A DNA stretch of 20,000 nt. Origin: Rozella allomycis CSF55. Lineage: Eukaryota. The position numbers were made by a program, and so were the translations under genes. Shown in pieces: positions 1-18,336 of this stretch. The stretch is taken from NCBI GenBank assembly GCA_000442015.1, contig KE560678.1, positions 49,145 to 69,144 on the forward strand, written 5' to 3'. How positions within the stretch are numbered: the stretch's first letter is position 1; every line of letters starts with the position of its first letter. The notes below the pieces were generated by a model that saw only the letters and a program-made list of their open reading frames with translations, was not told the origin of the DNA and did no database searches.

Positions 1-497
1 TGAAGTTGAGGCCGCTTACCTTCCTGGAGACAGAACATATCGGTATTTTGGAAGAGCAAAAGAGCTTCCTGGAGTGAAAGAACTATTCGAAGCTCAGAAG
101 CCCGTTGAATTTAGAAAGACGAGATTTGAAATGATAAAAGCGATAGATCCAGACTATTTCGGATACCGAGACGAAGATGATGGCGTTTTGTTACACATTG
201 AAAGCGAATTTGAAAAGAATGGTATTTAATACAACAAATGTTTAACTAGAACTTATAGACGCATTTGAATTATGGAAGATGAAAACGGACGATGGATTTA
301 GCGTTAAAAGCCGGGAAATCGAGGAGCAATTTGAAAAAGAGTTGAATGAAAAAATTAGTGCATGGAATTTCCCGCCATTAAACACCGAAGTATGTTTAAC
401 ACACGACGTTCCAATACCCACACAAAAAGATGTTGAAGCCTATTTACTGGAACTTAAGAAACAAGAAATTCTGGAGAAATACACAAGCAAATCTTAA
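1..497 (+). CDS. ISY1: Pre-mRNA splicing factor ISY1 (NTC/Prp19 complex), 5'-partial; exons <1-221 and 250-497
   Basis: Frame from nt 2 reads YRYFGRAKELPGVKELFE...IDPDYFGYRDEDDGVLL, the Isy1 family motifs. C-terminus has VPIPTQKDVEAYLLELKKQEILEKY. GT-AG intron 222-249 (28 nt); an in-frame alternative acceptor lies at 258. Confidence 0.92.
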
Positions 498-557
498 TGT
501 AGAAATAAAACTTTTTTTATCAAGTTAAAAATTTTGATAGGATATTTTCGGTTTTTT

Positions 558-2447
558 ATGCTGATTTTGTATGCCACACAAACAGGGACTGCCCAATATG
601 TCGCAGAGAGAATAGCGAAAGACGCATACAGAAAGGCTGTAGATTTTAGAATAAGGGGAATGGACGAGATAGATTACGTAAAAAAACCAGATTTGTTATC
701 TTCTAGCTAGATTTACCAAATGAGAAGGTTATAATATTTGTGTGCTCAACTACTGGAGATGGCGAAGCTCCTGAACAAATGGTTAATCTATGGAAATTCC
801 TGCTCAAACGTTCACTACCTGGAGATTTCTTGGCTGACGTTTCTTGCTCAGTTTTTGGTCTCGGGGATTCTTCATACGCAAAGTAGACAAATATTTATAT
901 TATATCTAGATTCAATTATCCAGCAAAAAAGCTATGGAAAAGGCTTATTCAGCTTGGCGCCAAAATGATTGGAGATAGAGGTGACGGTGACGACCAGCAC
1001 CCACTTGGGTAATATTAACTTAATCGAATTAATTATAGGGTAGATGGTGCTTTTTTACCTTGGATAAAATCAGTCTGGGAAGGTTTGCGTAACGTGTTAC
1101 AGTGTGATGTCGACAAGCAAGAAATTACTTCGCTGCCATCAAAGTATAAATTTATTGAAAAAGAAGAATATAACACAGATATACTAAAGGATAATTCTGC
1201 TTTCGTTGTTAAAAATGAAAGAATTACAACTTTCGATCACTTTCAAGATATTCGTTTGATTACGCTTGACGGGGTATTTGATTACAACCCGGGAGATGTT
1301 GCTGCATTAAAGCCCCAGAATTTACCTGAATATGTTGAAAAGTTACTTACAAGACTTGATTGGCTAAAATATGCTGACACATCTTTTGAATTGACAATTA
1401 ACAGACCTGACGGATCAAATCATTTTCATAGCAAATGCTGGACGTTAAGAAAACTTTTGACAGAGGAATTAGATTGTTATTCAATTCCAAGGAAATCGTT
1501 TTTTGAAATCTTGGCTCAATTCTCACACGATGAAATGTTTACCGAGAGATTAAATCACTTTATATCTCCCGAAGGTTTAGTAAAATATACTAAATATCTT
1601 CATTAGGATGATTTCTTAGACTACAATCAAAGAATGAAAAAGACTGTTTTAGAAGTACTCGAGGACTTTCCTGGTTTAAAATTCCCTTACGAATATGCTT
1701 TTGACGCGTTTCCGTTAATTAAGAGTCGATGTTTCTCCATATCAAGCTGCATTAAAAATAGAATAGAGTTGGTAGTGGGGATTGTAAATTACAAAACCAA
1801 AATGAAAGTCCCCAGAGAAGGATTGTGCACTCGATGGCTTGCAACTCTAACACGTAAAGGCAGTTAAATAAATTAACAAGAAAATACCAAAGTAAATTTA
1901 AGCATCAAGAAAGGGTCATTCACGTTCTCAAACGGAGTTTTACCAACGACTCCAATTATACTTTGCTGTGCGGGAACCGGAATAGCCCCGATGAGGTCTT
2001 TGATTTACTACCTACTGATTCATCAAGATTTTAAACAAGAAATTTATCTCTTTTTCGGATGCAGAAATAAGAACAAAGACGACATATTCTATAAAGAATT
2101 CAATGAGTTATCAAATTCTTATCCGAATTTTACATACTTTTATGCATATTCAAGAGATCAAGTAAATATTGTTCTTGACATTTAATAGCCAAACAAAGTT
2201 TACATTCAAAATATCCTGCTTCAGAATCAATCTTTGATTTGGTCTCTAATAAATCACAAAAAAGCTTCCGTTTACATTTCTGGGTATAGAAAATGTTTTA
2301 TTTTTAAATAGAAACACAAGCCTGCCAAAAGAAATTAAGAAATCTTTACTCGAGATTTTCACAAACAACTTAAAAAATGATATTATCGCAAATCAACAAA
2401 TAGAGCAGCTAATAAATGAAAGAAAGATTCAATGGGAAGCTTGGTAG
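558..2447 (+). CDS. NDOR1: NADPH-dependent diflavin oxidoreductase 1 (Tah18), 8 exons
   Basis: ATG at 558: MLILYATQTGTAQYVAE (FMN loop), CSTTGDGEAP, VFGLGDSSYAKFNYPAKKL, GDDQHPLGVDG, RCFSISS, GLCTRWL, GTGIAPMRS, LFFGCRNKNKD, AYSRDQPNKVYIQ, terminal WEAW*. GT-AG introns 678-706, 883-909, 1009-1038, 1580-1606, 1854-1880, 2162-2188, 2284-2311. Confidence 0.93.
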
Positions 2448-8822: not shown

Positions 8823-10010
8823 ATGGCAGCAACAGAGGAAAGGTTAGCATTCATCGCCGAGTGGTTTGATAAAAGTGCTGATTTAACAAGAGTTTTTCAT
8901 TTTCTCTATTTTCCAACAGATCAGTCCATTGAACTCGTAAGTATAGTTCCAACAAATGTTAGGTGGACGACAAGACAAAGAAAATATTCTTAAAGAGAGC
9001 GCCATATCCAAACATCACTATCGATCAGGTATATCTGGGCGCTACAATCACCGTCTATTCAAGACCAATGACTTTGGTAAATTTTGGAGACGAACGGACG
9101 AGGAAAGTGTTCAAAACAGAATCATTGCAGTATAAAATATCTATATTATTGACAATTAGTGAATTCTTGGTGATAGCCGCATCCAAAGATAATAAGAAAT
9201 GTTTGGATGAAATTTACTCAATATGTCACACTAACAATACCCAAATCATTTCCATAGATCTAGTCAGCGCGTACATTCTCCCACAAAATTTGAGAGAAAA
9301 ATTGCCTAGAGGAAATGTCATAGTAGCTAAATTAAAAGGGGATCCAAGAAATGTTTGTGAGAATGCAAACATAGTACTGCCAGACAGAGAACAATGTGAA
9401 AAAGTAATTCCTATTTATCTTATTTAAATGATAATTAATGAACTTGCTTCAGCAAATTTTGATCTTCACGAGAATGCAAGTTTGTGCATCATCAAACCGC
9501 ATTCCATGATTCAAGGTATTCATATACGTTGATTAAAATATGGTCGGTGCCATGAAATAATTAAGGAAATCTCCGATGATTTCAATATATTGGCTATAAA
9601 AACTGTTCGATTGACTTTAGCAGAGGCCGAAGAATTTATGGAAGTTTATCAAAATGTTCTTCCTGAATATCATGTAAAAATTATGAAATTGCTTTAGTAG
9701 CTTTTAATAAACGAGCTCATCGCTGGAAATTGTGTGGCAATGTAGGTTTCTAGTCTGCAATTAATATAGTCAAGCACGTCCGTTAAATGGTGCTAATGCA
9801 GTGACATCATTACGAGAATATGCTGGTCCTTATGACCCTGAAATCGCCAAGCTAATAAAACCAGATTCTCTACGCGCTAGATTTGGAAACGATAAAATTC
9901 AAAACGCAATTCATTGTACAGACTTGATTGATGATGCCCCGCTTGAGGTAAGTTGATGCGTCGAGTATTTATAGATTCAATATATATTTCAAATAATAAA
10001 GGCCCAATAA
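8823..10010 (+). CDS. NME7: Nucleoside diphosphate kinase 7 (DM10 domain, degenerate NDK-A, NDK-B); axonemal/centrosomal protein, 8 exons
   Basis: DM10: ERLAFIAEWFD..FHFLYFPTDQSIEL|VDDKTKKIFLKR..VYLGATITVYSR. NDK-B: SLCIIKPH, AEEFMEVY, LREYAGPYDPEIAKLIKPDSLRARFG..IQNAIHCTDL..APLEIQYIF. Introns 8937-8962, 9130-9159 (in-frame, stop-free), 9404-9430 (GT-TG), 9516-9542 (GT-TG), 9674-9700, 9742-9769, 9948-9974. Confidence 0.9.
9404..9430 (+). other. Putative 27-nt GT-TG intron (NME7 intron 3)
   Basis: gtaattcctatttatcttatttaaatg. Removes an in-frame TAA. The first downstream AG (9451-9452) is out of frame. Confidence 0.55.
9516..9542 (+). other. Putative 27-nt GT-TG intron (NME7 intron 4)
   Basis: gtattcatatacgttgattaaaatatg. 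Removes an in-frame TGA and restores KPHSMIQGRCHEII. The next AG (9564-9565) is out of frame. Confidence 0.7.
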
Positions 10011-10022
10011 TCTGTGTATTTT

Positions 10023-11411
10023 TTATTTAAATAATGATTTTGTTGATCCTGATAGCTTTCGATTCAATCTATCCCAATGAAACGTGCAATTTTCAAAACT
10101 TAATTCTTCTAAACATGAAATGGAAAGTTCAAAAATATCACGATCATCTTGTGAAGCGAATTTCGCAGATTTTAACAAGTTTCTCTGAATCAGTACTACC
10201 TTTTTGAGTCTTTCTTTGTCAACATAATCTTTTTCTTTGTGGATGAAATCATTAACACTTGACTTGACAATGTAAATAACTCAAATTACTTGTATATCGC
10301 CGACCGTAGCTTGAATAGTTCCTTTAATTCGGTCACTCCTTTGTTTTAAGTTATTTTTAATGTTAATCCAGTCCCACACCTGCATGCTTTCGTTTTTCTT
10401 CAATTGGATATCCAGTAAACTTGGAATTTGTTCCAAGGGTGTTAGTTGTAATTGCTTTGAGCGATTGATGAGAGAATATATATCATCGATATCAGGATAT
10501 TCCATCAAAATCTTTATTCCATCAATCCCTTGTTCCAAAACTATTAGTCAAAAAGCAATACCTTACGCCTTTCCTTGACGTTAAATAACATCGTTAGACA
10601 AATGTACGGAAGAATTTCAAAATTTGATACAAAAATTTCATTCCATAAAGGAATAATCTGATCTAATCGAAACTCCCTCGAAAAAAGTAACCTAATCCAA
10701 CGACAATTGCAATAACAAAACCAATCTTACATGAAGTAAACGCTAGGATCTAATTTTAGTGTTTCATGAATGTATTCATAATATTCTTCATCTATTTTTC
10801 GTAACAGGTGCTCATGCACTTTTTCTGACAACGTTGATAATCCTGCCCCCTTTAATCAATTTTGAGAATCAAACATTACAAAATAGAATATCTTGACTTT
10901 TTCTATTAATTTCTCATAAATCTTATAAACATTATATGTGGAGGGATAGTTTGTTTGTTCTGAAAGCCAAAAGACCACCGCAAGTAGTTCATGCATTCCC
11001 TGGCGGTATTCAGTTCCCGTTAGTTTGTAATAACAGTAAAGTAATTTGGTCAATGATTCAGCAACTCTTCTATCTCTAAAATAGGGATTGTCAGGAAAAC
11101 TTGTATTATATTGCAGTTTTAAACATACATTCTGTCAACGTCCTTTTCAATTAGTTTTACAGTTTCTTCTTCCTTAAAATGTAAAGACCACGAACTCTTT
11201 GACATAAAATTAATTATTCTACTCCCTTCTTTAATGATAATGGATGATCTTGCTCCGTGTTTTCTTCTAATTTAATTTGTGAACTGATTTGAGTGAAAAA
11301 AACATTTTCTGGATCCTCAATAAGAATGTAATTGAAAATTTTCTGTTATAAAAGTGAGAACAATATTCTTACTGCCCAACCTTCAAAATAGCCTTGATAA
11401 AAAGTGGACAT
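10023..11411 (-). CDS. TBC1D5: TBC-domain Rab GTPase-activating protein, TBC1D5-like, 8 exons
   Basis: DHPLS...SSWSLHF, catalytic IEKDVDRIFP and YRQGMHELLA, YFIRWIRLLFSREF, LMEYP. Minus-strand introns 11372-11343, 11222-11197, 11128-11100, 10879-10850, 10730-10704 (GT-TG), 10566-10541, 10289-10263. The start codon is less certain. Confidence 0.82.
10704..10730 (-). other. Putative 27-nt GT-TG intron (TBC gene intron 5)
   Basis: Minus strand gtaagattggttttgttattgcaattg. Splicing gives AT|T CGT TGG ATT AGG = IRWIRLLFSREF, the conserved TBC1D5-family motif. Confidence 0.72.
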
Positions 11412-11474
11412 GAAATTTGATAAATAGGAAATTGGAGACTGAATCACCTATGAAAAAAGAATTGACATTTGTAA

Positions 11475-12768
11475 CTATTTTAATTTATTTGCTAGATTAT
11501 TTGGAGTCCATGGGCCCAACGAATCTTTGGCATAAAAGTCCATAGGGTAAACTGACTGCCATTCTATTTGATCCAAACATACATTCATTTCAAACGGAGT
11601 TAATAATGGCTTAGGATACGAATATCCCCAGTCAATCGATAATCTGGGACATGCGACTTGAACAAAAGTGTCAATGTCTTTAAATTGGGTGATTTTGCTG
11701 GCAAAAATTTCAGACATTAATATTCTGGTATATTTCTTTCCACAATCTTTTAACTTTTTCTCGATCGTTTCTAGGACCCTCGGATTACCTTGGCGTCCTA
11801 AAGTGCCCAAGATCAAACCCACAGACTTTGCCTGCCTCGCCTTAGTTATGGCTTCTTTTCTTAGTTTATGCATTTCCTCAATTTCATAATATTCTCTTGT
11901 CATTGTTTTCCCGTAGGGATCGTATTTGTATGCACACTTGGATGGATTGGCAATCATAATTGCCTCAAGATGGAACCTACCATCCCCCAGATATACAATA
12001 GCGTCAGTATCTTTGTCTAGCTTTGGTGCTGTGCAACCAAGAATTTCTCCTGGTGAAAGTGGTTTAATTTGCGGAATAAATATTTTTGGAAAGTCACTTA
12101 AAGCATTCTTTGCTGCATGAAGCGAAGTTAAAAACTGCACAGTGGACACAAAACAAATCTTTTGATCTGGATGAAAAAATGTCCTAATATGTTCGACAAA
12201 ATGTGAAATGTCAAACTTAATATCTACGAAAACGTACATAGTTTTTATCTTTGTAACATCAATAGGAACTATTTAAATTTTAATGTAAAGAAATACCTAA
12301 ACATGAGTGCCCATAATGAACCATAAAGTCACATCCTAAAGCAGTTGCTGTAAAATCATCAATGCAACAAGCACCATATGTGACATCACCCATAATAACA
12401 GTTTCCACTTGAGCAAATCTTAATCATTGTTTCATTGAATATGTACTTTTCCAATATATCAGATATTATGCAGGCATACATTAATAATCCTTCAGGAAAC
12501 TGAAGTGCCACTCTTTTAGACTGATTCTTTTTGCACATCCATATAGTTTTATGAATTTCAAAATTATAGTTTTTTGGCATCTATATTTTATTAAAGAATC
12601 TCAATCTCTTACCTGGGCGATCCAGTCATTCAGCTCTTTGTTTTCCAGAATGTCATCTGGAATCTGATTGAGTTTTCTAAAAGTTTTAACATTTCCTAAT
12701 ATTTAGATAATAATAAGAATACTTTTTGGATCATTCTTTTTCTGAACCAGAGCTGTTTCCTCCAACAT
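11475..12768 (-). CDS. DPH1: Diphthamide biosynthesis protein 1, 5 exons
   Basis: [107 protein letters not shown] introns 12722-12696, 12612-12581, 12446-12419, 12296-12269. Confidence 0.96.
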
Positions 12769-13700: not shown

Positions 13701-15429
13701 ATGAAACTCGACGCTTGTTTGGCTGCATTAACTGTTTTATCTTCGATCAATGTAATTGTATATGTTTAAATAAGAAAGGCTGAGGCGTTATTTGTTGAAA
13801 AGTTTGAATCAAAAAGCTTGTTGGGAGACAAATGGGTACCATCAGAAGCAAAGAAAGATTCCGGTGATGTTTTGGCGTATGATGGTCAATGGGAAATAGA
13901 GGAGGCTTCTGTGTTGAAAGCATTTGACGATGATTTTGGGCTTGTTGTAAAATCTCCAGCCAGACTTCATGGTATAACAAGAAAGTTTGACAAAGCTATC
14001 CAAATTGAAGATGAAAAGCCTTTCGTTGTTCAATATGAAGTGAAATTACAAAAAAGTCTTGAATGTGGAGGGGCTTATTTGAAACTGTTGACTGCAGGAG
14101 AAGAAGAATTCAATCCTACTCAGTTCCATGACAAAACACCTTATACAATAATGTTTGGACCTGACAAGTGCGGTTCTTCTAATAAAGTAATGAGACTAAA
14201 AAGAATTGAAAGGTTCATTTTATTTTTCGTCACAAGAACCCTGTGACTGGCCAAATTGAAGAAAAGGCTCTAAATAATCCACCGACTGCTAAAATCACAG
14301 AAAAATCTGTTCTTTATACTTTAATTGTTAAACCTGACAATAAATTTGAAATTCGCATTGACAGTGAAAAAGTTAGGGAAGGGTCTCTCCTTGAAGACTT
14401 TACACCATCAGTGATACCACCTAAAGAGATTGAAGACCCTAATGACACAAAGCCAGAAGATTGGGATGAAAGAGAAAAGTAAGTTTGACAGCAAGTCTAT
14501 TTTTAGAATTCCAGATGAAAGTGCAGTGAAACCAGAAGACTGGGATGAAGAAGCACCAAAGGAAATTGAAGATATTAATGATACAAAGCCTTCAGATTGG
14601 CTTGACGATGAACCTTTATTGATTCCTGATGTCGATGCAGCAAAGCCCGATGATTGGAATGAAGAAGAAGATGGAAAATGGGAGGCTCCATTAGTTGAAA
14701 ATCCTAAATGTAATTCTGGAAAATGTGGCGTTTGGCAACGAAGAAAAATCTCAAACCCTAATTACAGGGGTAAATGGAAAAGACCCTTGATAAGCAATCC
14801 AAATTACAAAGGAAAATGGTCACCAAAGAAAATACCAAATCCTGAATATTTTGAAGACGATAAAATATATAAATTCACCCCAATGGTAACATTCATGCAT
14901 GTAATTGAAATAGACTGCTGTTGGTTTTGAACTTTGGACCATGCAGAATGATATTCTATTTGACAACATTTTCATTTCAGATTCAATTCAAGATGCAGAA
15001 AAATTTTCTGACGAAACTTTTAAATTGAAATCTAAAGAAGAAGCTTTGAAAGAACCAAAGGAAGAAGAATCAACTGTGGAAGATAAACAAGAAAGTTCGT
15101 TTGAAGATTCTTCTTCATTTGGACCTTACCTGGATGCTTTAAAGAACATCGATATCTCTAAAATTGTTGAATTGTTGAAAACTGAGCCAATGACGTTTAT
15201 TCCATTCTTTGCTGCAGTTTTCTTTCCAATTCTTATTGTTTATTTCGTAAAATGGGCCATTTCAAACCCAGTTTCAGATTCAAAAGAGAAAATAGAAAGT
15301 GACGATGGATTTCAAGAAGAACAAAATGATGAAGTTGAAACAAACGAAATTAAAACTCAAGAAGAAAAGGAAGACAATTCTCTCAATCAAGTTAACGCCC
15401 AATCTGATGAATCAACTGATAATGAATAA
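13701..15429 (+). CDS. CANX: Calnexin, 5 exons
   Basis: Signal peptide [54 protein letters not shown]-domain repeats KPEDWDE and GKWxxPxIxNPxY, [16 protein letters not shown], one TM helix and an acidic tail. GT-AG introns 13752-13778, 14187-14212, 14479-14506, 14886-14913. Confidence 0.96.
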
Positions 15430-16485: not shown

Positions 16486-16550
16486 TATTTGAATGAGTTT
16501 CCTGATCATGCTGAAAGNTATTCGAATGAGTTTCCTGATCATGCTGAAAG
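16486..16550. repeat. 32-bp direct repeat (1 mismatch) flanking a single N; probable scaffold-join artefact
   Basis: tatt(t/c)gaatgagtttcctgatcatgctgaaag at 16486-16517 and 16519-16550, separated only by N at 16518. Confidence 0.85.
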
Positions 16551-16791: not shown

Positions 16792-18336
16792 ATGCGTCTA
16801 TTCGTCTTCCTCTCAATTATAAAAGGTATGTTTGCAGGCAGTTTGGTTATATTAGTGCTGTCTTCTAATCCAATTAATGTCATTTTGATGATTTCCGACG
16901 GTTTCGGACCGTCGAGTGAAACATTTGGAAGAACAATTTACCAGTTTAAAAATAACCTTCCTTTTGATCATCCGACGCCACTAGATGAAATTCTAGTGGG
17001 AACTTCGAGAACAAGATCTAGTTCTTCCCTTGTTACAGACTCTGCTGCTGGGGCTACTGCTTTTTCATGTGGATTGAAATCATATAATGGTGCCATTGGA
17101 GGTAAAAATACACGCAAAGTTTTTCAGTTAATCCAAATAAGAAACCTTGCGGTACTATTTTCGAAGCTGCAAAAGCAAAGGGGCTTAAAACAGGCCTTGT
17201 AGCAACTTCCAGGATCACCCATGCGACCCCAGCATCTTTTAGCGCGCATGTAGTTCACCGCGATATGGAAAACTTGATAGCAGAATATCAAGTAGGAGAT
17301 TATATTTTGGGTCCCCAAATTGACTTAATGTTTGGCGGTGGACGTTGCCATTTCGTGTCCAACATAACCTTTTCTAGTTGTCGAAATGATGATAGAAACT
17401 TGCTTAAAGAGGCATCTGATAAAGGTTACCATGTTATCAATAACAAGTATCAAATGATGACAAGTAAATTGTTAAAGTATGTTTTGTTATAAGCAAGTCA
17501 ATTACCTGTTATTGGACTCTTCAATAATGATCATATGTCTTTTGAAATCGATAGAATACCTGATCAAGAACCTTCGCTAAGTGAAATGACTAAAAAGGCG
17601 TTAGATCTACTCGCGGTTGATTCTGAAAATGGATTTATTTTAATGGTTGAAGGGAGTAGAATCGGTAGCACATGTTTTGCCCTCTTATTAGATATGGCGG
17701 CTCACAATAACGATCCAGTAGGCCACGCATCCGACATTTTAGAGTATTACGAGACAGTGAAACTGGCGAAAATCTTTGTCGAAAACCATCCAAGCACTTT
17801 ACTTATATCAGTATATGTCTTATTTTCTTCATTACAAGGTATCCGATCATGAAACTGGTGGGTTGTCTTTGGCCAAGCAATTAGACCCAGACAAGTACCC
17901 CATTTACAAATGGCTACCGAAACCAATTCTTAAAGCTAAAAACTCAATAGAATATCTTGCCTTAAGATTAGTACTTTTAAAAAATGAAAACTTTGACGAT
18001 TTATTTGAATACATTGACAAAATTATCCTACGCCATGGATTAATGATAGATGAACCACTGCTTAATGACATAAATCAAATAGTCTCTGCTACAAGAACAG
18101 GAAATGTATATAAGATTATGGCAGAGTTGTCTAAAATAATAAGTACATCTGCCCAGATTGGCTGGTCTACCCATGGACACAGTGCCGTGGATGTAAATTT
18201 GTACGCAACTGGATATGAATCGCACAAATTGAAGGGTAACATTGAAAATACAGCGATCGGGAACTTTATTGCAGACTTGTTAAATTTGGATCTTCAAAAT
18301 ATAACAAGTATATTAAATAAGCATGATACAGTGTAA
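16792..18336 (+). CDS. PHO8: Alkaline phosphatase (Pho8/PhoA family), probably 6 exons
   Basis: NVILMISDGFG, VTDSAAGATAF (catalytic Ser), TSRITHATPASF, MFGGG, MVEGSRIDMAAHNND, SDHETGG, THGHSAVDV. GT-AG introns 16826-16855 (in-frame, tentative), 17102-17127, 17464-17493, 17665-17691, 17811-17838. Confidence 0.93.

Follow-up and report, generated by a model that had tools for sequence, protein, structure and literature searches.

It is probable, judging from the DNA and from comparison with homologous proteins, that an intron of only 27 nt in a RabGAP-TBC gene of the fungus-like parasite Rozella allomycis CSF55 uses TG as its productive acceptor, at position 10704 of the window (the whole stretch of 20,000 nt that was analysed, positions 49,145 to 69,144 of contig KE560678.1). 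The intron, of the GT-TG kind and in phase 2, lies on the minus strand (10704..10730); it opens with GTAAG and closes with TTG. Since two further introns of this kind lie in the neighbouring NME7-like gene, splicing at TG is probably a regular event in Rozella allomycis. Genes in the window follow the standard genetic code; its GC content is about 35%, it holds about 13 genes in its 20 kb, and an Rfam scan of the whole of it matched no family.

On the minus strand the coding sequence runs GTT TAC TTC AT up to 10731, is interrupted by the segment 10730..10704 (GTAAG...CAATTG), and resumes with T at 10703 followed by CGT TGG ATT AGG TTA CTT TTT TCG AGG GAG TTT, the Ile codon being split AT|T by the intron. 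The sequence-only reading had pointed to a strong GTAAG donor and to an unspliced frame that stops at once; the donor is present at 10730, and the in-frame TAA at 10729-10727 lies inside the segment and is the sole stop between the two RabGAP-TBC exons. The ORFs 10727..10855 and 10544..10726 share one frame, and 27 is a multiple of 3. Because these same-frame ORFs are parted by a single TAA, any intron here is required to have a length that is a multiple of 3 and to cover the TAA. The borders of the segment cannot be slid, since the T preceding it differs from its last G and its first G differs from the T of the next exon. The coordinates 10704-10730 of the GT-TG segment are confirmed as exact. 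The segment begins with the GTA donor, its 27 nt fall within the length distribution of the GT-AG introns in the window, and it ends with TTG, not with AG.

The first downstream AG is 12 nt away from the TG (10692..10703, minus strand), and the only frame-keeping GT...AG pair, from 10730 to 10692, would remove 39 nt and change IRWIR to M, with the product YFMLLFSREF; it was rightly stated before that this AG is in frame and deletes conserved residues. Other borders were tried and rejected. Moving the borders by 1-2 nt, or making the intron 24 or 30 nt long, produces AT...AT, TA...GT, GT...AA or GT...CG ends or altered conserved residues, and a donor at 10742 joined to the AG at 10726 gives 16 nt and a frameshift. 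A ciliate code with TAA as a sense codon was rejected as well, as the long ORFs carry no in-frame TAA or TAG and the genes stop at TAA or TAG, in agreement with the standard code. Eliminated sequence of the ciliate type was rejected on sequence alone, TA boundaries being absent at suitable spacing.

The whole RabGAP-TBC gene model (10023..11411, minus strand) encodes 397 aa from ATG at 11411 to TAA at 10025-10023, with seven introns at 11372-11343, 11222-11197, 11128-11100, 10879-10850, 10730-10704, 10566-10541 and 10289-10263. Six of the seven are GTA...AG introns of 26-30 nt. Exon 5 (10731..10849) ends with ...LDPSVYF plus AT and was aligned to the homologue profile, and exon 6 (10567..10703) starts with T followed by RWIRLLFSREF... 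and covers positions 169-212 of the Pfam RabGAP-TBC profile. The catalytic motifs of RabGAP-TBC proteins are the Arg finger IxxDxxR and the Gln finger YxQ, and both were identified in the spliced translation as IEKDVDR and YRQ (YRQGMHE). Against Pfam PF00566 (cut-off 25.2 bits), exon 4 scored 25.8 bits and exon 6 scored 20.2 bits, which alone is under the cut-off; the spliced model scored 201 bits with our own homologue HMM. We take the gene to be of the TBC1D5-like type, a subfamily label which the family matches themselves do not carry by name. A PDB search with the TBC homologue P0004 matched other TBC families, the TBC domain of TBC1D5 being absent among the matches, and a PDB search with the TBC read-through translation gave no usable match. 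The TBC start codon is separated by 63 nt from the stop of the DPH1 gene (11412-11474). At the other end (10008-10025) only 12 nt separate the stop codon of the NME7-like gene from that of the convergent TBC gene, and therefore the 3' ends of the two genes must overlap.

Exact removal of the 27 nt gives ...VYF-IRWIRLLFSREF..., which aligns without gap to the homologues. It had been claimed that RW-x-RLLF-x-REF is a conserved block, and this is borne out by four of four homologues fetched via exon 4, that is, independently of the exon 6 motif, which all carry [YF]xIRW[IL]RLLFGREF. The exon 6 query returned 81 matches from 1.84 billion representatives searched. The expression RW...L[F]..RE was found in 77 of 85 proteins, a count which is partly circular, and circular for RW, as 81 of the 85 were fetched with exon 6. 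A profile HMM was built from 31 longer homologues; these were fetched with exon 6 and filtered by the expression including RW, so that a preference is partly built into the following scores. For the C-terminal TBC half the TG splice scored 118.5 bits, retention (X at the stop) 100.1 bits and the 39-nt AG splice 90.3 bits. The AG splice appears in the profile alignment as a four-residue deletion of RWIR and lies 28 bits under the TG splice.

Among the exon 6 matches, 37 were without the usual P-Q-x-Y context upstream of RW. Four of them are explained otherwise, two starting with M just ahead of RW and two having a variant of the true context. The other 33 matches are fragments of ORFs, short and with an upstream part that is an unrelated, pyrimidine-rich translation, and in all 33 the residue immediately ahead of RW is S or R, as expected from an AG|N reading. 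AGY encodes S and AGR encodes R; therefore these genes have an intron there, at the same position, in the same phase 2 and with an AG end. The check for an intron in orthologues that had been proposed is thus positive, and the intron position of 10730..10704 is common to homologous genes. To judge from these fragments, the intron ahead of RW is old, widely conserved in this TBC subfamily and AG-ending elsewhere. As an observation on the databases, fragments P0013-P0078 include 33 short ORF calls from genomic or metagenomic contigs that start within the intron ahead of RWIRLLF.

Our models of the window contain 37 introns, of which 34 are GT-AG and three are GT-TG, and all 37 donors are GTA; the census is hand-curated from our own models of nine intron-containing genes, with only the four introns of DPH1 checked against annotation. 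The 34 GT-AG introns measure 26-32 nt, with 26 nt in five, 27 nt in ten, 28 nt in nine, 29 nt in four, 30 nt in five and 32 nt in one. The length of 27 nt is therefore the mode (10/34), and Rozella allomycis is, on these 34 introns, among the shortest-intron eukaryotes. The 39-nt alternative exceeds them all, which agrees with the earlier remark that it would be longer than the other introns. The census was curated manually because automatic intron scans were too noisy and greedy. A control based on dinucleotide counts did not discriminate, since any border near a real intron bridges the ORFs as well.

The diphthamide-synthesis gene DPH1 (11475-12768, minus strand) was modelled by us with four introns of 27, 32, 28 and 28 nt, and the product is identical, letter for letter, to the annotated Rozella protein P0086. 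The ultra-short introns and the method of intron placement are therefore validated. Two segments, 390-429 (40 nt) and 499-524, were removed from the census, as they are probably intergenic, lying between the gene that stops at 495 and the ATG of the one after it. The region 1-560 (plus strand) probably holds two genes, first an ORF whose TAA stop is at 495 and then, from an ATG near 555, a flavodoxin gene of the Tah18/NDOR1-like kind. Two GT-AG introns, 17665-17691 (27 nt) and 9130-9159 (30 nt), both on the plus strand, are in frame and stop-free and are passed by plain ORF reading; read through, the former puts nine extra residues into the alkaline-phosphatase motif EGSRI|D. A single N occurs in the window, at 16518, in intergenic sequence; it parts two direct repeats of 32 nt that differ at one base (16486-16517 and 16519-16550). 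This stretch (16486-16550, plus strand) could reflect either a join made in assembly or a genuine small duplication.

A signal score was calculated from intron length, from positions 3-8 at the donor and from positions -12 to -3 at the 3' end, with the -2 base omitted. The three TG introns scored 2.3 (10730..10704), 0.2 (9404-9430) and -0.4 (9516-9542), all within the limits set by the AG introns (-3.6 to 5.7, median 2.2). The corresponding AG alternatives scored -5.1 (39-nt TBC), -12.7 (9396-9452) and -6.9 (alternative to 9516-9542); the gap between 2.3 and -5.1 is mostly due to the length term and depends on the smoothing of the length distribution. The TG introns end with ...CAATTG, ...TAAATG and ...AATATG, compared with ...CTAATAG, ...TTTAATAG and ...AAATATAG in AG introns, and apart from the replaced A they resemble the usual 3' ends of Rozella introns. 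In two introns on the plus strand, 13752-13778 and 9674-9700, an internal AG 3-4 nt upstream of the used AG is skipped (positions 23 and 24, respectively), as would be expected if the 3' site is chosen by a minimum length or by distance. With its GTA donor, its modal length, its gapless site in the homologues and the intron found there elsewhere, the segment 10730..10704 is beyond chance.

The NME7-like gene (8823..10010, plus strand; 331 aa, seven introns) is convergent with the TBC gene and contains a second 27-nt GTA...ATG intron at 9516..9542, with an in-frame TGA at 9530-9532, and a third, probable one at 9404..9430, with an in-frame TAA at 9425-9427. In each case a single stop splits same-frame ORFs just past a GTA, and when both introns are removed the ORF is 331 aa long and stop-free. 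For 9516-9542 an in-frame GT-AG alternative is absent: the first AG, at 9564-9565, would remove 50 nt, and the product is frameshifted with its first stop after 207 aa. Retention of this intron would add 8 extra residues relative to solved NME7/CFAP67 proteins, in three of the three alignments shown. The exon after it aligns to the Pfam NDK profile from position 16-18, which by our own count on the NDK consensus presumably continues the K-P-H segment of the preceding exon. For 9404-9430 the canonical rival is 9396-9452, which has 57 nt and would be the only intron with a GTG donor. A PDB search with domain A of the NME7-like protein gave no usable match, the first NDK domain being too divergent. 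If the NME7-like protein is made as modelled, the organism must be able to end introns without AG. The three TG introns are all within 1.3 kb and are all of 27 nt, two facts that count against the TG reading.

That the TG is a dead acceptor, with the AG at 10693-10692 used and 39 nt removed, or with both sites used and the AG dominant, is unlikely. Such a protein would be without IRWIR and, in net terms, four residues shorter, and would be hypomorphic or non-functional. In its favour, the 39-nt intron has GT-AG borders and keeps the frame, and the behaviour of human genes points the same way: in the parts of the study consulted, human AG>TG mutants activate nearby AGs, a TG is never alone, and the 12-nt distance found here is inside the 28-nt limit of human TG-AG tandems (PMC2374985). 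However, the product would lose the R-W pair common to all 77 motif-bearing homologues, at a cost of 28 bits against the profile, and the length of 39 nt is above the maximum of 32 in 34 AG introns, with a score (-5.1) lower than that of the lowest true intron (-3.6). In addition, the NME7-like intron 9516-9542 is without any workable AG, and therefore the organism must be able to manage non-AG intron ends. While both products of the TBC intron are in frame, the AG product of 9516-9542 is frameshifted, which is against the use of TG as an alternative only.

It is quite improbable that the intron is simply kept, either in a recent pseudogene or to give a truncated product of 189 aa ending at the TAA. 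This would fit the outcome of queries with exon 4 (129 aa or longer) and exon 7 (147 aa or longer), which did not find the TBC protein in a collection of 5.8 billion proteins, in contrast to the neighbouring DPH1 protein, which is present in the same collection at 100% identity. The TBC gene thus seems to be absent from deposited annotations, for models reaching exon 4 or exon 7 length. But this absence is equally explained if gene callers that require AG dropped or fragmented the gene, as they may have done. There is no decay elsewhere in the gene, which has six canonical introns, a frame of 397 aa and both catalytic fingers, and the same lesion occurs twice more in a conserved neighbour, contrary to the prediction of neutral decay. 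It is very improbable that the intron is an ordinary one with a real AG end, obscured by an error in base calling or assembly or by a polymorphism of the strain. A single T-to-A change at 10705 would restore a canonical acceptor, and the N at 16518 beside the duplicated 32-mer indicates that the assembly is imperfect. Against this, the T at -2 is also found in two introns of the next gene, and three independent errors at -2 bases are very unlikely by our own, uncomputed estimate; the flanking coding sequence is free of frameshifts, and the DPH1 model equals the annotated protein exactly. The recurrence of TG introns makes a base-call error very unlikely. The use of TG as acceptor, which the sequence-only reading had put forward as its inference, is thus supported by the advantage of 28 bits, the shared intron site, the two more TG introns and the intact gene.

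In the mechanism that we propose for splicing at the TG, 10730..10704 would be an ultra-short spliceosomal intron at an anciently conserved TBC position, in which the 3' terminal AG became TG. The spliceosome would most likely cut after the terminal G, 27 nt from the donor, and the joining of AT|T to Ile would yield the conserved ...YFIRWIRLLFSREF... helix and an otherwise intact GAP. In introns so short and uniform, with 26-32 nt, a GTA donor and an A/T-rich 3' end, the branch A would likely lie only a few bases before the 3' end. The position of the 3' cut might be fixed mainly by the distance from the donor and branch point together with the terminal G, and the T at -2 might then be tolerated at the optimal length of 27 nt. 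The downstream AG (12 nt) may act as a minor alternative site, or it may be a partner in early recognition, as could be compared with human TG-AG tandems.

U12-type introns tolerate varied 3' dinucleotides, and their 3' end is chosen by the distance from the branch site. They are marked by an RTATCCTT donor and a TCCTTAAC branch box, and known U12 introns are far longer than 27 nt. The non-AG 3' end is thus common to both, whereas the U12 motifs and the size are wanting here: by direct reading, the RTATCCTT donor and the TCCTTAAC branch box are absent from all three TG introns.

The human TG-AG tandems, of which GNAS and TSPYL2 are examples (in the part of PMC4176328 consulted), resemble the Rozella introns in being U2-like, in starting with GT and in ending with TG. 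In the consulted parts of the main study, which validated human TG acceptors in 36 genes, each acted as an alternative to an AG no more than 28 nt away and none alone; human AG>TG mutations activated neighbouring AGs and not the TG, and the human TG sites preferred a pyrimidine at -3 (PMC2374985, Szafranski et al. 2007). An AG within the 28 nt described there is also found here, at 12 nt in the TBC intron and at 22 and 23 nt in the NME7-like introns, although AGs are common and this likeness is weak. In contrast to the human TG, which by that account is never the sole site, the TG here is, for the TBC gene, the one splice from which a conserved protein results and, for 9516-9542, the one that keeps the frame. 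Unlike the human tandems described there, the Rozella TG introns have only 27 nt and no room for a polypyrimidine tract, and the -3 base is A in two of the three, against the pyrimidine preference of the human sites (PMC2374985).

In a curated annotation of Ganoderma lingzhi, GT-TG accounts for 22 introns, or 0.024% of the splice-site table that was consulted (PMC11590231); these are likewise fungal U2-type introns with GT-TG borders, and such a low prior counts against the TG reading. The frequency in Rozella is different from this figure, with three of 37 introns in 20 kb of our own models, all of one length and in a genome with ultra-short introns. Ultra-short introns are described, in the examined parts of PMC13644364, from myxobolid myxozoans, Dicyema, ciliates and microsporidia, with a median near 27 nt, a GTa donor, no polypyrimidine tract and A residues near the 3' end. 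The introns of the Rozella window fit this description. In those same parts AG is the remaining 3' signal, and non-AG ends and Rozella are unmentioned (PMC13644364). Short Rozella introns of about 30 nt are mentioned in the consulted part of PMC6349667. In the literature searched, a set outside which the original 2013 genome paper lies, no report of TG acceptors in Rozella was found.

Few signals in eukaryotic gene expression are as constant as the AG at the 3' end of introns. Recurrent and apparently sole TG acceptors would be new, as known TG acceptors are rare and need an AG nearby, the human TG being known only beside an AG. It is possible, though slightly less likely than not, that for a percent-level fraction of the ultra-short introns of Rozella allomycis the TG is the one productive 3' splice site, where the cut would be set by a fixed distance of about 27 nt from the donor and branch point and not by the AG dinucleotide. 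If this is true, no eukaryote before Rozella would have shown a constitutive relaxation of the 3' AG rule, and it would offer a natural test of how the site of the second catalytic step is chosen and of how far the AG requirement can relax once the distance is fixed. It would also explain genes that are missing or broken in the published annotations. Gene finders that accept no end other than AG would split or lose genes with TG introns. Rozella proteomes are much used in reconstructing the origin of microsporidia and fungi, and the proteomes of Rozella, and perhaps of its relatives, may miss genes for this technical reason.
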